Of a DNA stretch of 64,000 nt, positions 1,417 to 61,200 are shown one piece after another. Every line of letters begins with the position of its first letter. The first letter of the stretch is position 1. The notes below the pieces were generated by a model. The model did not search any database. It had not been told where the DNA came from and was given only the letters and a program-made list of their open reading frames with translations. Made by a program: the position numbers and the translations under genes. Source of the DNA: Acholeplasma sp. CAG:878 (lineage in GTDB: Bacteria; Bacillota_I; Bacilli_A; RF39; UBA660); contig HF989914.1 in the NCBI GenBank assembly GCA_000432255.1, positions 11,270 to 75,269 of the forward strand. Direction: 5' to 3'.

Positions 1417-2613
1417 TTAAGATTTTACAACATAAGGGTCTGAGCTTGTTCCACTTCCAGTAACTAATGTATCAGCACTTAGGTTAATAACAGGTCGAAC
1501 GCCATAATTACTGGCGACATGAAAGTCGCCAGTACGACCAGCGCTAACAACACCCCAAGCACGTGCATAATCATTATAAGTATAGAAGCCGGCGGGGCTC
1601 ATCATACAATATGCACTTCCATTTTTTAGATAAAAGTTTGAACTACTTCCTATTACTCCACCTGCAAATAGTACTTCATCTATTGTTATCAAACCTACTT
1701 TTCCACTTACGACACCTTTTCCGTTTCCATCTGTTGTACAATCAAATGATGGTGTGTAATTATCTTTTGTTGCTACTGTAGCACTTCCTGCAGTATAGTT
1801 TGTATTATATACTACTTTTGCTTGTTCACAAAAATAATTTCCATTTACCACTTTTTCATCAAAACCTTTGTCACTTATATTTGTTTTATACCAGTTTTCT
1901 ACTGCTGTTTTGATTTCTGAGTTTGTATAATACATTTTATCATATGTATTGTATGCACTATTAAATTTTTGACTTGAGATAACATTATCTTGTGTTATTA
2001 ATCTCATTGTTCCATCTTCATTGATTCTTACTATTCTCCATACTTTGTCAGCAAACTTTACATAATTATTTTCTACTGCTCCTTTAAAATAATATGTCGT
2101 TCCAGTGCTAGTGGTTTTTGAATATAATCCATCTCCACTTGTAACAACATTGGAATCATTAGTTCCTAACAACTTTTCTTTGAGTATTGGTTCTGATGAT
2201 ACATCATTTTCTTTAGTACAAGTAACATTACTATTAATAGTTCCATCACTATTTACATTCGTACATACATAATCTTTCATTGAAGCAAACTTTACTCCTT
2301 CAATCTTAATTCCTTTTTCAACGCTATCTTTTGAATTATAGATTGTCCATGTTCCTGCTATTGGTTTTTCTCCTGCTACTGTTAATTCATTTACATCTCC
2401 AGTAGTTATTTTATTTAAGTTTAGTAATCCTTCGGCATATTTTGTTCTTACCGCATCGATTACTCCATAGCAACTTTTTTCTATTGACTTAATTTTGGCA
2501 TTTTCGATGACATTAAATATTATTGGAGTTGTTATTAAGGCTATTATTGATAATACTACAATTACTGCCAATAATTCAATTAATGTAAATCCTTTTTTCT
2601 TTTTATTCTTCAT
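1417..2613 (-). CDS. Prepilin-type (class III signal peptide) protein with a large C-terminal domain; paralog of 49105..50902
   Basis: The N-terminus MKNKKKKG|FTLIELLAVIVVLSIIALI carries a prepilin cleavage/methylation motif with Glu at +5, followed by about 370 aa. The C-terminal roughly 200 aa (YYFKG...MSPAGF...GVRPVINLSADTLVTGSGTSSDPYVV) are closely similar to the C-terminus of ORF 49105..50532. Confidence 0.8.
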   Translation of the reverse strand: MKNKKKKGFTLIELLAVIVVLSIIALITTPIIFNVIENAKIKSIEKSCYGVIDAVRTKYAEGLLNLNKITTGDVNELTVAGEKPIAGTWTIYNSKDSVEKGIKIEGVKFASMKDYVCTNVNSDGTINSNVTCTKENDVSSEPILKEKLLGTNDSNVVTSGDGLYSKTTSTGTTYYFKGAVENNYVKFADKVWRIVRINEDGTMRLITQDNVISSQKFNSAYNTYDKMYYTNSEIKTAVENWYKTNISDKGFDEKVVNGNYFCEQAKVVYNTNYTAGSATVATKDNYTPSFDCTTDGNGKGVVSGKVGLITIDEVLFAGGVIGSSSNFYLKNGSAYCMMSPAGFYTYNDYARAWGVVSAGRTGDFHVASNYGVRPVINLSADTLVTGSGTSSDPYVVKS

Positions 2614-2744
2614 ATACTACTATTCCTTTCCTTATTTTTTAATATTATTTAATTTACTACTATTACTACTTTTTATGCACCGCCACCTTTTTTTATAAGT
2701 ATATTGTTAACTATAAAATACCATTTGATTATTTTCACAACACA

Positions 2745-2885
2745 TTCTTTGTTAAAAAACAAAAAAACACATCAAAAAACTAGTTTTCTCGTGTTTATTT
2801 ATATGGTTAGTTAAATACTTCTCTTTATTTGTTAACTTATTATATATATTATTTAACATAACCATATTGTTCACTCCTTGTTTTT
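2745..2885 (-). promoter_or_regulatory. Conserved upstream element, copy A (SD + short uORF + 17-bp inverted repeat + hairpin/T-run)
   Basis: Minus strand reads AAGGAGTGAacaatATGGTTATGTTAAATAAT...TATTTAACTAACCATATAAATAAACACGAG-AAAACTAGTTTT-TTGATGTGTTTTTTT. Arms atatggttatgttaaata and tatttaactaaccatat form a 17-bp inverted repeat separated by about 33 nt. The same block recurs at 50985..51125. Confidence 0.5.
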
Positions 2886-2968
2886 TTTAAATCTTTATTT
2901 AATTTGCAAATACAAATCAATAGTCATATCTTATGACAAGATAATCGTATCATATAAAATATAAAAAT

Positions 2969-3655
2969 TCAATATTTATTCAACATTTTTAATCTTCTAA
3001 TTACTTTCTTTTCGATTCTTGAAATATAAGATTGACTTATTCCCATAACCTCAGCAACATCTTTTTGAGTCAACTCAGCTTGACCATATAGTCCATACCT
3101 TAATGTCATTATTTTTTTATCACGAACTGGTAATTTATCAATCTCTTCATACAATATTTTTTTATCAATCTCATCTTCTAATGGTTTAGTTACTATATTA
3201 TTTTCTGTTCCTAAAATATCTTCTAAATGCAGTTCATTTCCTTCACTATCATAACTAAGACTATCTTCAAAACTAACTTCACTTCTTCTTTTTTTGTTTT
3301 TTCTTAAAAACATTAAAATTTCATTATCAATACACCTTGATGCATATGTAGCTAATTTAATATTTTTATCTAATTTATATGTATTAACACCTTTTATTAA
3401 TCCAATTGTTCCAATACTTACTAAATCTTCCAAATCCACACCTGTATTTTCATATTTTTTAGCTAAAAACACTACTAATCTTAAATTGTGTTCGATTAAT
3501 TTTTTTCTTGCTTCCTCTTCACCTTCTTGACTCCTAAGCACGTATGCTACTTCATCTTCTTTTGATAATGGTTCTGGTAGCTTATCCGCACTCCCTACAT
3601 AAAATATTTCACCTGTAAATATTTTTAATATTAATTCTTTAATTTTTTTTAACAT
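2969..3655 (-). CDS. sigE: Sporulation sigma factor sigma-E (pro-sigma-E)
   Basis: The protein aligns along its full length to B. subtilis SigE. The pro-sequence region ...EIFYVGSADKLPEPLSKEDE matches ...EVYYIGGSEALPPPLSKDEE, and LIEHNLRLVVFLAKKYENTGVDLEDLVSIGTIGLIKGV, KLATYASRCIDNEILMFLR and TQKDVAEVMGISQSYISRIEK are all shared. A GGAGGAATGAA SD lies in the 3' end of spoIIGA. Confidence 0.9.
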   Translation of the reverse strand: MLKKIKELILKIFTGEIFYVGSADKLPEPLSKEDEVAYVLRSQEGEEEARKKLIEHNLRLVVFLAKKYENTGVDLEDLVSIGTIGLIKGVNTYKLDKNIKLATYASRCIDNEILMFLRKNKKRRSEVSFEDSLSYDSEGNELHLEDILGTENNIVTKPLEDEIDKKILYEEIDKLPVRDKKIMTLRYGLYGQAELTQKDVAEVMGISQSYISRIEKKVIRRLKMLNKY

Positions 3656-8008: not shown

Positions 8009-8093
8009 TGGTGCGTGAAAAGAGACTTGAACTCTCACGATTATTAATCACAGACACCTCAAGCCTGCGTGTCTACCATTCCACCATTCACGC
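8009..8093 (-). tRNA. tRNA-Leu (anticodon GAG), class II with long variable arm, CCA encoded
   Basis: Minus strand: GCGTGAA-TG-GTGG-AATGGTAGA-CACG-C-AGGCT(T)TGAGG... The acceptor stem GCGTGAA/TTCACGC is perfect. The anticodon stem CAGGC/GTCTG encloses loop TTGAGGT (anticodon GAG). It has a long variable arm, T-arm GAGAG-TTCAAGT-CTCTT, discriminator A and CCA. Confidence 0.85.
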
Positions 8094-49104: not shown

Positions 49105-50532
49105 TTATTTTACAACATAAGGATTAGCACTTGTTCCACTTCCAGACACAAGCGTATCAGCACTTAGGTTCAAAACTGGGCGGACGCCACGAGTAGCGCT
49201 GACATAATCGTAGTTAGTAGTACCATCACTATTAGCATACCAAGCATTAGCATTAGCACTATTATACATATTACTGAAGCCGGCGGGGCTCATAGTCCAA
49301 TAACTACTTCCACTATTCAAGTAATATGGATAACTACGCCCTCTTACATAATACCATCCTCCAGCATAGATTGTCTCATCATATGTTACTAATCCTACTT
49401 TTGATGTTACTACTCCTTTTCCATTTCCATCTGTTGTACATTCAAATGTTGGTGTATATGATTCTTTTGCTGTCAATTTTGTAGAACCTGTTTTTAATTT
49501 AAAATTAGTTCCATCATATGCAACTCTTGCAGCCTCACAGAAATAGTTTCCACTTACTACTTTACTTGCATTATCTCCTGTTATATTGGTAGTAAACCAA
49601 TTATCAACTACCGTTTTAAGTTCTGAATTTGTATAATACATTTTATCATATGTTTTGTATGTACTATTAAATTTATTGTATCCAATACTTGATGTTAACA
49701 TTATTCTAATTGTTCCATCTTCATTAACTCTTAATATTCTATAGTCTTTTCCTGCAAATTTTATGTAGTTATTTGTTGGATTTCCTCTGAAATAATATGT
49801 TTTATTACCCCCCAATGTTTGGGCATATAATCCGCTTTGGTCACTTGTTTGCCATGAAGTTGTCCAAGTTTGGTCAGTTGCTATTACATTAGAGTTATTT
49901 GTTCCTAATATTGCACTTTTTAAGCCAACTGTATTACTAACTGTTATTTTTACAGTTGCTTCTGCAGTTTTTCCATTTGTTCCTGTTGCTGTACATTTTA
50001 CTGTATGGTCTCCTGCATCTAATGAACTTACATTTTCTACTTCACATGTAACTTGTCCGCCAGTTTTTCCAAATTTTACATTGAAGCAATTTTTGATTTT
50101 TACATCTGTTCCTTTATTTACTGTTACTGCTGCTTCTTTCGCGCTAATAGTAGGTTGAAATTCATCAACTCCATCTTTTTCGCATGTTACTTTACTTGTT
50201 ATTTTGTCATTTTCATCAACATTTGAACAAGTATAGTTTTTCATTGATGCGAATTTTACTCCGACAATTTTGATTCCTCTTTCATCACTATTTTTTGAAT
50301 TATCTATTGTCCATGTCCCCATGTATGGATGTTCTCCTGCTATTGTTAAATCTGCTACTTCTCCTGATAGATTAACTGTTCCATCAGTTGAATTTAATAA
50401 TCCTTCTGCATATTTTGTTCTTACTGTATCGATTACTCCATAGCAACTATTTTCTAATGACTTAATTTTTGCATGGTTCCTCGTTCTTTCCATCTTTAGC
50501 GCAAGTAACTTTACTATTAATGGTTCCATCAC
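49105..50532 (-). pseudogene. 3' portion of a prepilin-type paralog: second copy of the head module + Ig-like segment + shared C-terminal domain. It has no signal peptide and is frame-disrupted relative to 50462..50902.
   Basis: Homology to 1417..2613 begins at ...AKIKSLENSCYGVIDTVRTKYAEGLLN, exactly at the stop of the upstream ORF but in another frame. There is no class III signal peptide of its own. The C-terminal 200 aa are paralogous to gene 1417..2613 (MSPAGF...GVRPVLNLSADTLVSGSGTSANPYVV). Confidence 0.5.
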
Positions 50533-50902
50533 TATTTACATTTGTACATGTATAATCTTTCATTGATGCAAATTTTACATCTTTTATTTTTATTCCTCGA
50601 TTATCTGGATTACTTGAATTATCAATCTCCCATATTCCAGCGATTGGTTGTTCTCCCGATACTGTTATTTCTGTTACATTTCCTTTTGATTTTACTGTTC
50701 CATCTTCTGAATTTAATAATCCTTCGGCATACTTTGTTCTTACCCCATCAATTACTTCATAACAACTATTTTCTATTGACTTAATTTTTTCATTTTCGAT
50801 TACATTAAATATTATTGGAGTAGCTATTAAGGCTATTATTGCTAGTACTATAATGACTGCTAATAATTCTATTAATGTAAATCCATTCTTTTTATTTTTC
50901 AT
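50462..50902 (-). CDS. Prepilin-type protein, N-terminal module only (146 aa); forms a frame-shifted tandem arrangement with 49105..50532
   Basis: MKNKKNG|FTLIELLAVIIVLAIIALI has a prepilin motif, then one head module (IENEKIKSIENSCYEVID...KVTC). It ends AKDGKNEEPCKN* where homology continues in the +1 frame. Confidence 0.6.
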   Translation of the reverse strand: MKNKKNGFTLIELLAVIIVLAIIALIATPIIFNVIENEKIKSIENSCYEVIDGVRTKYAEGLLNSEDGTVKSKGNVTEITVSGEQPIAGIWEIDNSSNPDNRGIKIKDVKFASMKDYTCTNVNSDGTINSKVTCAKDGKNEEPCKN

Positions 50903-50984: not shown

Positions 50985-51125
50985 ACAAAAAAACACGAAA
51001 GAAACCTAGGCAATAAACCTAGTTTCTCCGTGTTTATTTATATGGTTAGTTAAATAACCCCCCATGTGTTAACTCATTGTATACATTATTTAACATAACC
51101 ATATCAATCACTCCTACTATTTAAA
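50985..51125 (-). promoter_or_regulatory. Conserved upstream element, copy B: promoter (TTGAAA-17-TATTAT), strong SD, 18-codon uORF, 17-bp inverted repeat, 15-bp-stem terminator
   Basis: Minus strand: TTGAAAaatgatttattatgtgtTATTATttaaatagtAGGAGTGattgatATGGTTATGTTAAATAATGTA...TTATTTAACTAACCATATAAATAAACACGGAGAAACTAGGtttattgCCTAGGTTTCTTTCGTGTTTTTTT. It shares the ATGGTTATGTTAAATA / TATTTAACTAACCATAT inverted repeat with copy A. Confidence 0.5.
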
Positions 51126-51156
51126 TAATAACACATAATAAATCATTTTTCAAGTA

Positions 51157-53655
51157 TTATTCTATGTCAATATTATCAATAATACCTTCAATTTGAAGCA
51201 TTCTATTATCAATATCATCTAACGATATATCTAATATTTCTTCTTCTATTTCTTTATTTTCTTTTGTTTTTTTAGTCAATTCTACTAATTCAAAACAATC
51301 TTTAATTCCTTTTTTATTAATAACTGTACCGGTTGAATATCTATCTACAATTGGCAATTCTGTTACTTTTAAATGTTTAATTTCATCAGTTAATATTAAA
51401 ATATTTTTAGTATTTACAAACGTTTTTAATATTTTGTATGGATTAGTTTTAACATCCCTAACTAATAAAATACCTTTTCTTGCTCTTGTGGATAATTCAA
51501 ATTCATTTAATTTAATTCTTTTTCCTGTACCATTTTCAGTAATTACAGTTATATAATCAGCACTATTAAATACTAAACCACTTCTAACTTCATCATTTTT
51601 CAAATTAATCGACTTAACGCCACTTGCTTTAATTCCAACAGTTGATACTTCCGATGTATTGTATCTTAAGGCATAACCATTTTTAGTTGTTACAAATATG
51701 TTATTGCCATCTACATTAGATACGCTTACCAATTTGTCATGATTTTTCAAATTCATACAACACATTGGTTTAGAATATCTATTAACTTTAAATTCATTTA
51801 AACTTGTTCTTTTTACAAAACCATCTTTGCTAAATAAAGTTATTAAAGTGTTGTTAAACTCATATACCGGCATACTTGCTATAATGTTTTCATCACTATT
51901 AAGTTTTACAATATTAGATATATGTTTACCTAATTCTTTCCACTTTAATTCTGGTATTTCATATACTGGTAAATATATATAATTACCTAAATCAGTAAAT
52001 AATAAAATTGTATTTAATGTATTAATTTCATATAATCCAATTAAATAATCTCCATCTTTTACTAGTGTGTCTTCATCTTTATTATAACTTCTAAGTGATA
52101 CTCTTTTAACATAACCTTCCTTAGTTATTGCTACTACGACGTCATCTTTTGGTAACATTTTAGTCGCATCTATTTTTATATCTTCGATTTCATCTAACAC
52201 TTCTGTTTTTCTATCTACGGCATAAAGTTTTTTAATTTCTCTTAATTCTTCTTTCATAACACTTTTCAAAACATCTACATTAGATAAAATAGAATTTAAT
52301 TTATCAACAATTATTTTTAAATTGTTAGCTTCTTCAATTAATTCAGAAACATCTGTATTAGTTAATTTATAAAGTTGTAATTCGACAATTGCTTTAGCTT
52401 GCTTTTCACTAAAATCATAGTTATTAACTAAATTAACTTCAGCATCACTTTTATTTTTACTACTTCTAATCGTTTTAATAACTTCATCTAAAATACTTAA
52501 AGCCTTAATTAATCCTTCAACAATATGTATTCTTGCTTTTGCGTGTTCTAAATCAAATTGTGTTCGTTTTAATATAACTTCCTTTTGATGAGCTATATAA
52601 GCGTCTAATATTGATAATATTCCTAAAACTACTGGTCTATGATTTACTATAGCAACCATATTATAGTTATAAGATATTTGCATATCAGTATTTTTCAATA
52701 AATAATTTACTATTAAATTTGTATCAGCATCTTTTTTTAAGTCGATTACTATTGTTTCTGGATTTTCTAAATCTGATTCATCTCTTACTTCTAAAATTCC
52801 TTCTATTTTTTTATCAATTCTAATTTCATCTATTTTTTTAACTAATAAACTTTTATTAACATCAAATGGAATTTCAGTTATTATTATTTGGTCTTTTCCT
52901 TTGTTTTTAACTATTTCATACTTTGATTTAACTATTACTTTTCCTTTTCCTGTTTTGAAAGCATCGATTATTCCTTGTTTTCCACAAACAATTCCTCCGG
53001 TTGGAAAATCTGGTCCTTTAATAATGTCTAAAATAGTATCTAAATAGCAATTAGGACTATCTATTCTTTTTATTGTAGCATCTATTACTTCACCTAAATT
53101 GTGAGGAGGAATGTTAGTTGCATATCCAGCACTTATTCCATTTGCTCCATTTACTAATAAATTGGGAAATCTTGCTGGTAAGACAGTTGGTTCGAATAAT
53201 GTGTCATCATAGTTATATGTCATTACAACTGTATCTTTATTTATGTCTTTTAATAATTCATTGCTTATTCTACCTAATCTTGCTTCGGTATAACGATAAG
53301 CGGCTGGACTATCCCCATCCATTGAACCATTATTACCATGCATATCGATATATAAAGTGTTTTGTTTCCACCATTGACTCATTCTTACCATTGCATCATA
53401 TATTGAAGCATCTCCATGTGGGTGGTAGTGTCCCATAACATCTCCAACGGTTTTTGCACATTTACGATATGGTTTATCATATGTGTTTTTACCTTGATAC
53501 ATTGTATATAAGATTCTTCTTTGAACAGGTTTTAAGCCATCCCTTACATCTGGTAAGGCTCTATCTTGAATAATTTCTTTAGCATATCTTGAAAACCTAT
53601 CCCCCATTATATCTTCTAGTGAATAATCATAAATTCTTTTGATTATATCTTGCAT
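51157..53655 (-). CDS. parC: DNA topoisomerase IV subunit A (type IIA topoisomerase A subunit; ParC rather than GyrA because there is no GyrA-box)
   Basis: LPDVRDGLKPVQRRILY, active-site Tyr region AAYRYTEARL; the C-terminal beta-pinwheel lacks a QRRGGKG GyrA box. It lies downstream of parE in the same operon and not in the dnaA context. Confidence 0.8.
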   Translation of the reverse strand: MQDIIKRIYDYSLEDIMGDRFSRYAKEIIQDRALPDVRDGLKPVQRRILYTMYQGKNTYDKPYRKCAKTVGDVMGHYHPHGDASIYDAMVRMSQWWKQNTLYIDMHGNNGSMDGDSPAAYRYTEARLGRISNELLKDINKDTVVMTYNYDDTLFEPTVLPARFPNLLVNGANGISAGYATNIPPHNLGEVIDATIKRIDSPNCYLDTILDIIKGPDFPTGGIVCGKQGIIDAFKTGKGKVIVKSKYEIVKNKGKDQIIITEIPFDVNKSLLVKKIDEIRIDKKIEGILEVRDESDLENPETIVIDLKKDADTNLIVNYLLKNTDMQISYNYNMVAIVNHRPVVLGILSILDAYIAHQKEVILKRTQFDLEHAKARIHIVEGLIKALSILDEVIKTIRSSKNKSDAEVNLVNNYDFSEKQAKAIVELQLYKLTNTDVSELIEEANNLKIIVDKLNSILSNVDVLKSVMKEELREIKKLYAVDRKTEVLDEIEDIKIDATKMLPKDDVVVAITKEGYVKRVSLRSYNKDEDTLVKDGDYLIGLYEINTLNTILLFTDLGNYIYLPVYEIPELKWKELGKHISNIVKLNSDENIIASMPVYEFNNTLITLFSKDGFVKRTSLNEFKVNRYSKPMCCMNLKNHDKLVSVSNVDGNNIFVTTKNGYALRYNTSEVSTVGIKASGVKSINLKNDEVRSGLVFNSADYITVITENGTGKRIKLNEFELSTRARKGILLVRDVKTNPYKILKTFVNTKNILILTDEIKHLKVTELPIVDRYSTGTVINKKGIKDCFELVELTKKTKENKEIEEEILDISLDDIDNRMLQIEGIIDNIDIE

Positions 53656-56161: not shown

Positions 56162-56524
56162 TTATTCTACCTCTTTAACATCAACTTCGTACCTAAGCCC
56201 ATCATTAGTATTTGTAACAGTAATTATAGTATCGTCACTAAATTTTTTACTACTTATTGGACTAATAACATCTTTTGTTATATATCCTTTTTCTTTTAAA
56301 TCACCTAGCGTTATTGTATAGCTTTGACTTAAATCCGGCAAAAGTTCTGGATTATCAGCAAAATAATTTTTTGTATTCTCAACAATACTATTAATTTGAA
56401 TATTATATGCGTTTTTTCTATTTTCTTTTAAACTTCTATCAACTATCGTAACAACAATCGTTGCAATAATACCAAGTAGTACAACCACTCCTAATAGTTC
56501 AACTAAAGTAAATCCTTTTTTCAT
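56162..56524 (-). CDS. ComGC/PulG-like major pseudopilin (prepilin-type N-terminus), orphan
   Basis: MKKG|FTLVELLGVVVLLGIIATIVV has a class III signal with Glu+5; 120 aa. It overlaps the murC stop by 4 nt. No comGA/GB or prepilin peptidase is present in the window. Confidence 0.7.
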   Translation of the reverse strand: MKKGFTLVELLGVVVLLGIIATIVVTIVDRSLKENRKNAYNIQINSIVENTKNYFADNPELLPDLSQSYTITLGDLKEKGYITKDVISPISSKKFSDDTIITVTNTNDGLRYEVDVKEVE

Positions 56525-61104: not shown

Positions 61105-61200
61105 CTCCTTTAATCTCAGACTCGCCATTAAGGTACATTAAATGTTTATAACCTTTTTTGTGCGGTTGTAGAGAGGTCTCTACACAGTAATTAATTTTAA
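61105..61200 (-). promoter_or_regulatory. Candidate L21-operon leader RNA structure (ribosomal-protein leader)
   Basis: A GC-rich structured segment upstream of rplU on the minus strand: TGTGTAGAGACCTCTCTACAACCGCACA (nested stems), then GGCGAGTCTGAGATTAAAGGAGG leading to the ATG. This is the position where Firmicutes carry the L21 leader. Confidence 0.3.

Follow-up and report, generated by a model that had tools for sequence, protein, structure and literature searches.

A putative phase-variable leader-peptide attenuator upstream of large prepilin-type genes in a gut member of the Bacilli

Why are two large prepilin-type genes of a small bacterial genome preceded by the same block of nucleotides? 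The question arises from 64,000 nucleotides (nt) of contig HF989914.1 of Acholeplasma sp. CAG:878 (the whole stretch is called the window below), a sporulating gut bacterium with a small genome and 26% GC for which sources also use the name 'Candidatus Faecisoma'. A preliminary description had placed both genes, here pilin A and pilin B, behind one block, consisting of a promoter, a strong Shine-Dalgarno (SD) sequence, a short upstream open reading frame (uORF) embedded in a 17-bp inverted repeat, and a hairpin with a T-run; the coordinates, pattern counts and folding scores given below bear out both the shared block and this anatomy. We propose that the conserved block is most likely a heritable on/off switch for the pilin-like genes. 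More specifically, we regard it, with a probability of roughly 0.6, as a phase-variable leader-peptide transcription attenuator that would act through the frame of the uORF and the terminator behind it, placed before large prepilin-type surface proteins.

The block and its poly-G tract

The features of copy B, the element upstream of pilin B, are listed here; all element coordinates, for both copies, are in window numbering and on the minus strand.

51153..51125, minus strand: promoter-like site TTGAAA-17-TATTAT with an extended -10 TG, a consensus match
51115..51108, minus strand: SD sequence AGGAGTGA
51104..51087, minus strand: 5' arm of hairpin 1, ATATGGTTATGTTAAATA, which holds the uORF start codon
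ATG 51102 to TAA 51048..51046, minus strand: uORF of 18 codons, MVMLNNVYNELTHGGLFN
51063..51058, minus strand: poly-G tract (G6) within the uORF, placed in the hairpin 1 loop
51056..51040, minus strand: 3' arm of hairpin 1, TATTTAACTAACCATAT
51032..50994 (stem) and 50993..50987 (T7), minus strand: predicted intrinsic terminator, -17.5 kcal/mol

The promoter-like site starts 4 nt past the stop codon of a parC/gyrA-like gene, and strain L052 has the same site (strains and loci from relatives are cited by L numbers). The gap from SD to ATG is 5 nt (TTGAT), or 8 nt if measured from the AGGAG core, and an AGGAG-type SD at similar spacing recurs in nearly all of 24 distinct copies, the exceptions being L034 (GGGAG) and L015 (ATGAG). 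Hairpin 1 is predicted to have 17 bp and one bulged U (-18.4 kcal/mol). Stop codons for two frames are in its 3' arm, TAA at 51048..51046 and, used by tract lengths of 1 mod 3, TAA at 51052..51050; the stop of the third frame, TAG at 51008..51006, is the start of the terminator's 3' arm. Pilin B begins with the ATG at 50902, downstream of the terminator; between the two lies a -10-like TGgTATAAA/TATAAT that has no -35 and is not called by the promoter scan. By consensus matches, then, the block has a promoter and a leader reading frame with its own ribosome-binding site (RBS) and ATG, and it has a stem-loop and T-run terminator between this frame and the structural gene, as would be expected of an attenuator governed by a simple sequence repeat.

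Copy A, upstream of pilin A, is exactly like copy B in the SD, the first 12 codons of the uORF and both arms of hairpin 1. The 31-nt pattern from the SD to the 5' arm has exactly two matches in the window versus none expected, the exact 17-nt 3' arm occurs there only twice, and the block is more conserved between the copies than the flanking sequence on either side. Taken whole, the blocks fold with z = -5.2 (copy B) and z = -3.6 (copy A) relative to shuffles. After the 12 shared codons the uORFs diverge, as had been described, although the figure of 36 codons given for copy A should read 37. The point at which they diverge is the poly-G tract of copy B, which the preliminary description overlooked in treating the difference in uORF length as drift.

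The block also precedes pilin homologues from other metagenomes, with G9 or G10 at the place where copy B reads CAT-GGGGGG-TT. Further copies were obtained with a degenerate DNA pattern, which yielded 20 more, and with a peptide profile, which yielded 48 called open reading frames (ORFs); the orthologous copy B locus was recovered from ten strains with an identical ParC protein. A degenerate 37-nt pattern gave 0 matches in genome_contigs, from which the lineage is apparently absent or masked. Every complete locus has the element immediately before a gene of one surface-protein family and in the same orientation as that gene.

Among these relatives the tract ranges from G5 to G11, with every length present. 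The ten strains with identical ParC have G6 (three strains), G9 (six) or G10 (one), and there are pairs with identical flanks in which the tract alone differs: L051 and L058 have G6 where L052 has G9, and L053 has G9 where L054 has G10. The leader reading frame thus contains a repeat that varies between strains, out-of-frame changes included. Runs of at least seven G or C occur 28 times in 421 kb of DNA of this lineage (26% GC), and all 28 are inside the element. Identical flanks with different tract lengths, and long runs confined to the element, are the signature of a contingency locus, and we consider the tract very likely to be one, subject to slipped-strand mispairing. Since a hypervariable tract sets the frame of the uORF, a phase-variation switch describes the element better than the physiological riboregulator that had been suggested, while the suggested translation-coupled attenuator does fit the anatomy. 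The short G6 tract of the window's copy B should switch slowly.

The only other G/C run of 6 in the 64 kb is at 49808-49813, inside the body of pilin B, where the coding strand has G6. A position of the tract in a promoter spacer was considered for the window lineage and rejected, as no promoter-like site spans the tract in either the window's G6 or the G9 of L052; by eye, the candidate TTAACA-17-TAACTA/TAGATA has a poor -10.

Frames, terminator and the proposed switch

How could a run of G control a gene that lies behind a terminator? Tract length determines where the uORF ends. With lengths of 0 mod 3, the stop is a TAA 13 nt before the terminator stem; with 1 mod 3, it is a TAA or TAG 17 nt before the stem; with 2 mod 3, the uORF reads on (...YL[T/D]NHINKH[E/D]ETRF[I/K]A) and ends at a TAG that is the first codon of the terminator's 3' arm. 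Repeat length therefore shifts the stop from upstream of the terminator, at a distance of 13-17 nt, to inside it.

We propose the following course of events. A sigma-A-type promoter would start a short leader, on which a ribosome would bind the strong SD and translate the uORF with its poly-G tract. Slipped-strand mispairing in replication would alter the length of the tract and hence the frame of the uORF. In two frames the ribosome would halt in the 3' arm of hairpin 1, 13 or 17 nt short of the terminator; with the ribosome halted early, the terminator would form and the pilin would be off or low. At lengths of 2 mod 3, the ribosome would cover the 5' arm and loop of the terminator while the 3' arm is being made, no hairpin would form, and transcription would continue, so that the pilin would be on. 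Translation of the uORF and disruption of the terminator by the ribosome are both inferred. Under this scheme the window's copy B, with G6, is in an off frame.

The distribution of tract lengths bears on translation. Among 28 main-type copies, sampled regardless of frame, G9 was found 15 times, G10 seven times, G6 five times and G7 once; 20 copies fall in frame 0 and eight in frame 1, and the read-through frame is not represented, an outcome with a probability of about 1e-5 if all frames are equally likely. The same-frame lengths G6 and G9 are common and coexist on identical flanks, and G7 and G8 are rare. Without translation of the region, such a period of three bases is difficult to account for. 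Lengths that read through are nevertheless found, in more than 25 distinct peptides of 31 to 33 amino acids (aa) and at the loci L035 (G8), L036 (G8) and L037 (G11). The rarity of the read-through frame in consensus sequences fits an on state that would be costly or exposed to immunity. In L033 the tract is interrupted (GGGGAGGGG) and the frame enters the terminator; the lineages without a tract, or with an interrupted one (copy A, L033 and the more distant L038), are all fixed in frames that enter it.

The peptide itself drifts freely, as expected where the act of translation, and not its product, matters: counted by eye among the variants, there are about nine nonsynonymous and two synonymous codon changes in the uORF, in agreement with the earlier statement that conservation is at the nucleotide level. 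A conserved small protein was rejected as an explanation, since most substitutions change the amino acid and the C-termini depend on the frame. Also rejected was an RNA structure that depends on tract length. From G5 to G12 the predicted minimum-energy fold is unchanged, with the same two independent hairpins in both the full and the nascent RNA, and the poly-G never pairs with the U/C-rich terminator arm. With the fold constant across tract lengths, the tract probably acts via the frame.

This design has a precedent in Streptococcus gallolyticus, where repeated GCAGA units inside the leader peptide of the pil1 and pil3 loci shift its frame (Danne et al. 2014, PLoS Pathog 10:e1003860; PMC3894217). 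Short peptides there end 39 to 49 nt before a terminator of -18.7 kcal/mol and give low expression, longer ones end 4 nt before it or within it and give high expression, and chloramphenicol together with ATG*, 3-STOP and delta-terminator mutants proved translation-mediated antitermination (PMC3894217). The two devices share the order of promoter, leader ORF with RBS, ATG and repeat, T-run terminator and then pilus genes (here, pilin genes), terminators of similar energy (-18.7 kcal/mol there, -17.5 kcal/mol here), a repeat whose length fixes the frame and hence the stop of the leader peptide, termination with short peptides and read-through with those that reach the hairpin (predicted here), a low state, likewise predicted here, in the majority of cells or strains, and presence at several loci per genome. 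They differ in the repeat (a G homopolymer of G5-G11 here, 13 to 22 GCAGA units there), in leader length (about 130 nt versus about 390 nt), in the fraction of frames that are on (1/3 here, 2/3 there) and in the distance of the off stops from the terminator (13-17 nt versus 39-49 nt). Peculiar to the present element are the extra 17-bp hairpin around the start and stops of the uORF and the multi-copy, mosaic nature of the cassettes; the genes controlled would be prepilin-type (GFTLIE) or lipoprotein genes here and sortase pili there, and the host here belongs to the Bacilli and is an uncultured gut bacterium with a small genome. Given a G homopolymer in place of a GCAGA array, and no homology to the streptococcal leader in the element, it is an analogue and not a homologue of the S. 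gallolyticus leader. At the level of sequence, it has every feature that defines the S. gallolyticus design, the repeat type being the exception.

Copy A departs from this pattern.

2878..2871, minus strand: SD sequence AGGAGTGA
2867..2850 and 2817..2801, minus strand: arms of hairpin 1, -12.2 kcal/mol
2865..2752, minus strand: uORF of 37 codons, in the read-through frame, crossing the entire weak terminator
2830..2818, minus strand: AAATAAAGAGAAG, where other copies have poly-G
2793..2768 (hairpin) and 2767..2761 (T7), minus strand: degenerate terminator, -6 to -10 kcal/mol
2738..2710, minus strand: second promoter-like site GTGAAA-17-TATAGT, between the element and pilin A

The AAATAAAGAGAAG site shows no length variation in 14 strains. 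The palindrome had been called weaker in this copy, and so it is (-6 to -10 versus -17.5 kcal/mol in copy B); the terminator scan fails to detect it. L019 and L026 have a homologous, better promoter downstream of the element. With its tract lost, the read-through frame fixed, the terminator decayed and a second promoter present, copy A looks like a locked-on version of the switch.

Some minor variation of the leader may be recorded here. The terminator T-run of copy A is T7 or T8 depending on the strain (L004 and L005 versus L001 to L003), so that the read-through uORF ends differently (37 versus 43 aa), and the SD of these strains alternates between AGGAGTGA and AGGAGTAA. Many cassettes have a longer leader with an extra 9-bp hairpin (GTTGATTTG...CAAATCAAC) just 5' of the SD (L011 at about 2735-2790, L020 at about 1535-1575), of which copy A retains a remnant, the palindrome ATTTGCAAAT at window 2902-2911. 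An in-frame upstream ATG in the longer leaders leads gene callers to predict ORFs of 45 to 63 aa.

What, then, is the role of hairpin 1? It is present in nearly all copies at -14 to -19.5 kcal/mol (weaker in the L012 type), and the terminator structure is likewise preserved, with differing sequences, in the L012 type, L020 and L038. Across 22 close variants, 92% of cells pair versus about 40% when slid. A covariation analysis, which the preliminary description had proposed as a check, turned up few compensatory changes: in the 22 close variants the score does not exceed that of shuffles, and a single pair is altered on both sides. Changes in paired columns are mostly one-sided transitions that preserve G-U on this strand, one pair of hairpin 1 is unpaired in 10 of the 22 sequences, and the variants of the arms assort independently of each other. 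Clean compensations are confined to L038 (A-U to G-C at the base of the hairpin, G-C to A-U in the terminator). Because covariation is not significant in the close set, the structural evidence is suggestive only. Hairpin 1 probably gates or synchronises the loading of ribosomes, by pause or standby, and this is the least supported step of the scheme. It may limit initiation at the uORF to ribosomes loaded co-transcriptionally, or it may be a pause hairpin that synchronises ribosome and polymerase; it may also be an RNase III site or have a DNA-level role in slippage (compare PMC12721329).

Several points weigh against the proposed switch. The weak covariation support for the helices is one, and another is that the start codon is buried in hairpin 1, which could prevent translation of the uORF altogether. 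The whole case is built on assembled consensus sequences; the assemblies behind the frame statistic are not independent of one another, and the absence of G8 and G11 from the unbiased sample could partly mean that there is a narrow mutational optimum of length. Because off stops in S. gallolyticus are at least 28 nt away and a stop at 4 nt is on, and the off stops here are only 13-17 nt away, frame 0 may be leaky or intermediate. Given the second promoters of copy A, L019 and L026 and the -10-like sequence of copy B, pilin expression is possibly in part or wholly independent of read-through, and read-through may only add to a basal level. Moreover, many Firmicutes couple transcription and translation poorly.

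Other known systems and competing explanations

Phase variation by homopolymers in promoter spacers is known from Neisseria porA and opc, Bordetella fim and Mycoplasma hyorhinis vlp. The present element shares with those systems a hypervariable homopolymer upstream of multi-copy surface-protein genes with conserved 5' cassettes; it differs in that the tract of the window lineage is downstream of the promoter, within a uORF that looks translated. Ribosome-mediated attenuators, such as the trp and his leaders of E. coli and bmrB-bmrCD of B. subtilis, offer a second comparison. As in those, a leader peptide precedes an intrinsic terminator and the position of the ribosome would decide termination, and hairpin 1 is reminiscent of the 1:2 pause hairpin in the trp leader. 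The input here would be a heritable change of frame instead of tRNA charging or a drug, and the element has no regulatory codon run of the trp/his type (only GGG is repeated, from the tract) and no predicted alternative antiterminator pairing.

Pilin genes of clostridia are controlled by c-di-GMP-II riboswitches. A search of the whole window with Rfam 15, c-di-GMP-II and others included, gave no match at the gathering score at this site, and the best hits of a permissive local Rfam search were chance-level miRNA and PrrF models (E >= 0.14). Ordinary Rfam matches in the window were an L21 leader (61108-61177, minus strand, 54.8 bits) and a long-arm tRNA (8012-8093, minus strand).

Repeats that act in the transcribed leader are exemplified by the G-repeat of tlpB in H. 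pylori, with the small RNA (sRNA) RepG, and by hmw1A of H. influenzae, with a repeat hairpin in the 5' untranslated region (5'-UTR) and RNase III (PMC12721329). Here too, the transcribed 5' leader contains a simple sequence repeat whose length would modulate expression after the start of transcription, and the repeat is found together with a long hairpin, as it is in hmw. Control of tlpB and hmw1A is graded, via sRNA pairing or RNase III cleavage, whereas the present pattern is modulo 3 and comes with an SD, an ATG, frame-specific stops and a terminator.

Which other explanations deserve weight? The block could be an autonomous small transcription unit, yielding either an sRNA of about 125 nt with a G-rich loop or a peptide of 18 to 19 aa that is possibly phase-variable, with the pilin served by a promoter of its own. 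That would explain the strong terminator directly after the uORF, the second promoters between element and pilin in copy A, L019 and L026, and a consensus state that is nearly always the short frame, whose predominance might mean that a ...GG(G)LFN peptide is selected. It sits badly with an element that, in complete loci, is always upstream of and co-oriented with one surface-protein family, with the poor conservation of the peptide and the lack of an Rfam match, with the absence of a tool-detectable promoter between terminator and pilin in most copies, and with the retention of the long frame, not the short peptide, by tract-less lineages. We regard this explanation, which includes the small RNA gene of the preliminary description, as improbable and as less likely than the attenuator. 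Another reading lets the poly-G work as RNA without translation, either as the target of a C/U-rich sRNA, as with tlpB and RepG, or in a 5'-UTR hairpin processed by RNase III, as with hmw1A; both mechanisms are documented elsewhere (PMC12721329), the tract is exposed in the loop of a hairpin in the transcribed leader, and the 17 to 19-bp duplex of hairpin 1 is a plausible RNase III substrate. Neither mechanism predicts a three-nucleotide periodicity, yet G6 and G9 are common, G7 and G8 rare and the third frame absent from the consensus sequences; the conserved SD, ATG and two-frame stops would be left unexplained, and no partner sRNA is known in this uncultured lineage. This reading appears quite improbable.

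Could the block instead be mainly a substrate for recombination or gene conversion, serving antigenic shuffling of the pilin loci, with its RNA features incidental? The copies are mosaic, with a small set of arm, loop and SD variants combined in many ways; orthologous pilin loci differ in their upstream neighbour, contigs often break at the element, and pilin B differs in length among strains with identical ParC. For recombination, however, homology suffices: the promoter, SD, ATG, stops, T-run terminator and the kept G tract are not accounted for, and stem changes that mostly keep pairing through G-U point to constraint on this RNA strand. Exchange between copies is thus a real side effect, as the mosaic copies and varying neighbours attest, and very unlikely to be the best account of the anatomy. 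Finally, the block might be nothing special, merely a duplicated leader that includes the terminator of the upstream gene, in which case differences in the G-run would be neutral or assembly noise. The promoter/terminator scan indeed gives no separate terminator between parC and the copy B element in the window, the G6 of copy B is not by itself very unusual, and covariation is not significant. Yet rpoC in L011 and L012 has, by eye, a terminator-like hairpin and T-run of its own before the cassette promoter, the block is better conserved than both flanks, tracts of G9 to G10 persist at 26% GC and only in the element, and the frame bias, like G6 versus G9 on identical flanks, is unlike sequencing noise. 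Hence we hold this last explanation to be highly improbable.

A more elaborate form of the attenuator can be imagined, in which the cassette is a two-input, multi-level switch and not a simple on/off one; this joint reading is speculative, and we think it rather unlikely. There would be three levels of expression, tightly off with the stop at 17 nt, leaky at 13 nt (the state favoured in nature) and on with the stop in the terminator, and hairpin 1 would be a physiological gate on ribosome loading, for example through pausing, temperature or RNase III. RNA polymerase slippage on G9-G10 would add non-heritable heterogeneity from cell to cell. The cassette, which occupies some four or five loci in a 1.3-Mb genome, would spread by gene conversion and provide breakpoints for rearrangement and for shuffling of pilin domains; the device would have evolved from, or alongside, the promoter-spacer poly-G switches of sister lineages.

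If the attenuator reading is true, what would follow? Our literature search found control of a terminator by a repeat in a leader peptide demonstrated only in S. gallolyticus, and the leader-peptide/terminator mode is missing from the RNA-level modes of repeat-mediated regulation listed in a December 2025 paper. The present element would be a second, independently evolved case, based on a homopolymer and placed before type IV-pilin-like surface proteins, in an abundant, uncultured lineage of the human gut with a small genome. The device would then be a general one, recognisable in sequence by an SD and ATG, a repeat, frame-specific stops and a terminator, and genome scans for contingency loci should cover uORFs besides promoters and coding regions. 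The surface of a gut bacterium would be stochastically variable, which bears on evasion of immunity and phages and on how strain-level variation in metagenomes is read.

Pilin loci, relatives and neighbours

The pilin genes of the window that belong to the two loci are the following.

2613..1417, minus strand: prepilin-type gene A, 398 aa
50902..50462, minus strand: prepilin-type gene B, 146 aa in this genome
50532..49105, minus strand: 5'-truncated second pilin copy, after gene B

Copy A has spoIIGA-sigE on one side and pilin A, then rpsL, on the other; copy B is flanked by a parE/parC-like pair and by pilin B, behind which come a racemase gene and fpg. At 49105-50902 (minus strand), the 146-aa prepilin consists of the N-terminal helix and the first domain, followed by a stop, and the second pilin copy, in another frame, begins just past the N-terminal helix (...AKIKSLENSCYGVID) and runs for about 470 aa. 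Among the strains that share an identical ParC, this locus has a gene of 504, 490, 344 or 590 aa, or one split into 89 + 428 aa, which suggests tandem partial duplication, domain shuffling or frameshifts in what appears to be a hypervariable surface gene. With a tract of just G6 in copy B and a split pilin gene in this genome, the locus may be decaying here. An exact-protein look-up of the 146-aa pilin B returned no record; the pilin body has no NCBIfam family and a weak, sub-threshold Pfam match to DUF6273, and solved structures match the N-terminal helix only.

It had been suggested that every prepilin-like gene might carry the block. This does not hold for a third prepilin gene, of 120 aa (56162..56524, minus strand), which overlaps a Mur-ligase gene at the end of the latter and is preceded by neither a cassette nor poly-G nor a terminator; the block is therefore restricted to the large pilin family. 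No type IV pilus machinery was found among the 29 window ORFs scanned.

In L020 (1792-2811), a G9 cassette precedes a lipoprotein gene (lipobox ITGC) whose C-terminal 250 aa or so are homologous to the C-terminal body of the pilins. The same surface module is thus borne either by a prepilin helix or by a lipid anchor, and a lipoprotein under the cassette ties the cassette to the variable surface module and not to pilus assembly as such.

More distant pilin homologues (40 to 59% identical) were sought in genome_contigs by a second scan. Two come from metagenome-assembled genomes in which the tract lies in the promoter spacer: L039 (6850-6857) reads TTGACA-AAAGACC-G8-TATGAT, a spacer tract before the homologous pilin gene, and L045 (2954-2960) has an interrupted tract within TTGACA-17-TAAGAT, called a promoter by the scan, before its homologous pilin gene. 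With poly-G in the promoter spacers of these pilin genes, the family would be phase-variable by the classical route in sister lineages, which makes them a natural comparison: two switch designs on one gene family. In a third such genome, L044 (1151-1160), a G10 lies before a gene that comes just after a pilin-like gene and encodes a predicted membrane-anchored protein. L039, L045 and L044 are labelled 'Bacillota bacterium SIG201' and 'uncultured Bacilli'.

A more distant species is represented by L038 (118-250), on a contig labelled Muribaculaceae which, at 26% GC, is probably mis-binned. The layout of promoter, SD, uORF, hairpin and terminator is kept there, with a T7 run in place of the poly-G, and the uORF is fixed in the terminator-entering frame and ends in the 5' arm of the terminator. 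The attenuator architecture may therefore predate the tract.

The upstream neighbour of the cassette varies among close relatives, being sigE, a parC-like gene, rpoC, dut or an AAA ATPase gene (window 2969-3655 and 51157-53655, L011, L012, L013 and L035 compared), and the downstream neighbours are kept, as racemase-fpg or rpsL. The order sigE-pilin A-rpsL of the window takes the place of the usual rpoC-rpsL junction, which adjoins the cassette in L011 and L012. Metagenome contigs often end at cassettes (L018, L028, L031, L032), which look like breakpoints of chromosomal rearrangement. In the sample ERZ824480, four cassette copies are present at equal coverage.

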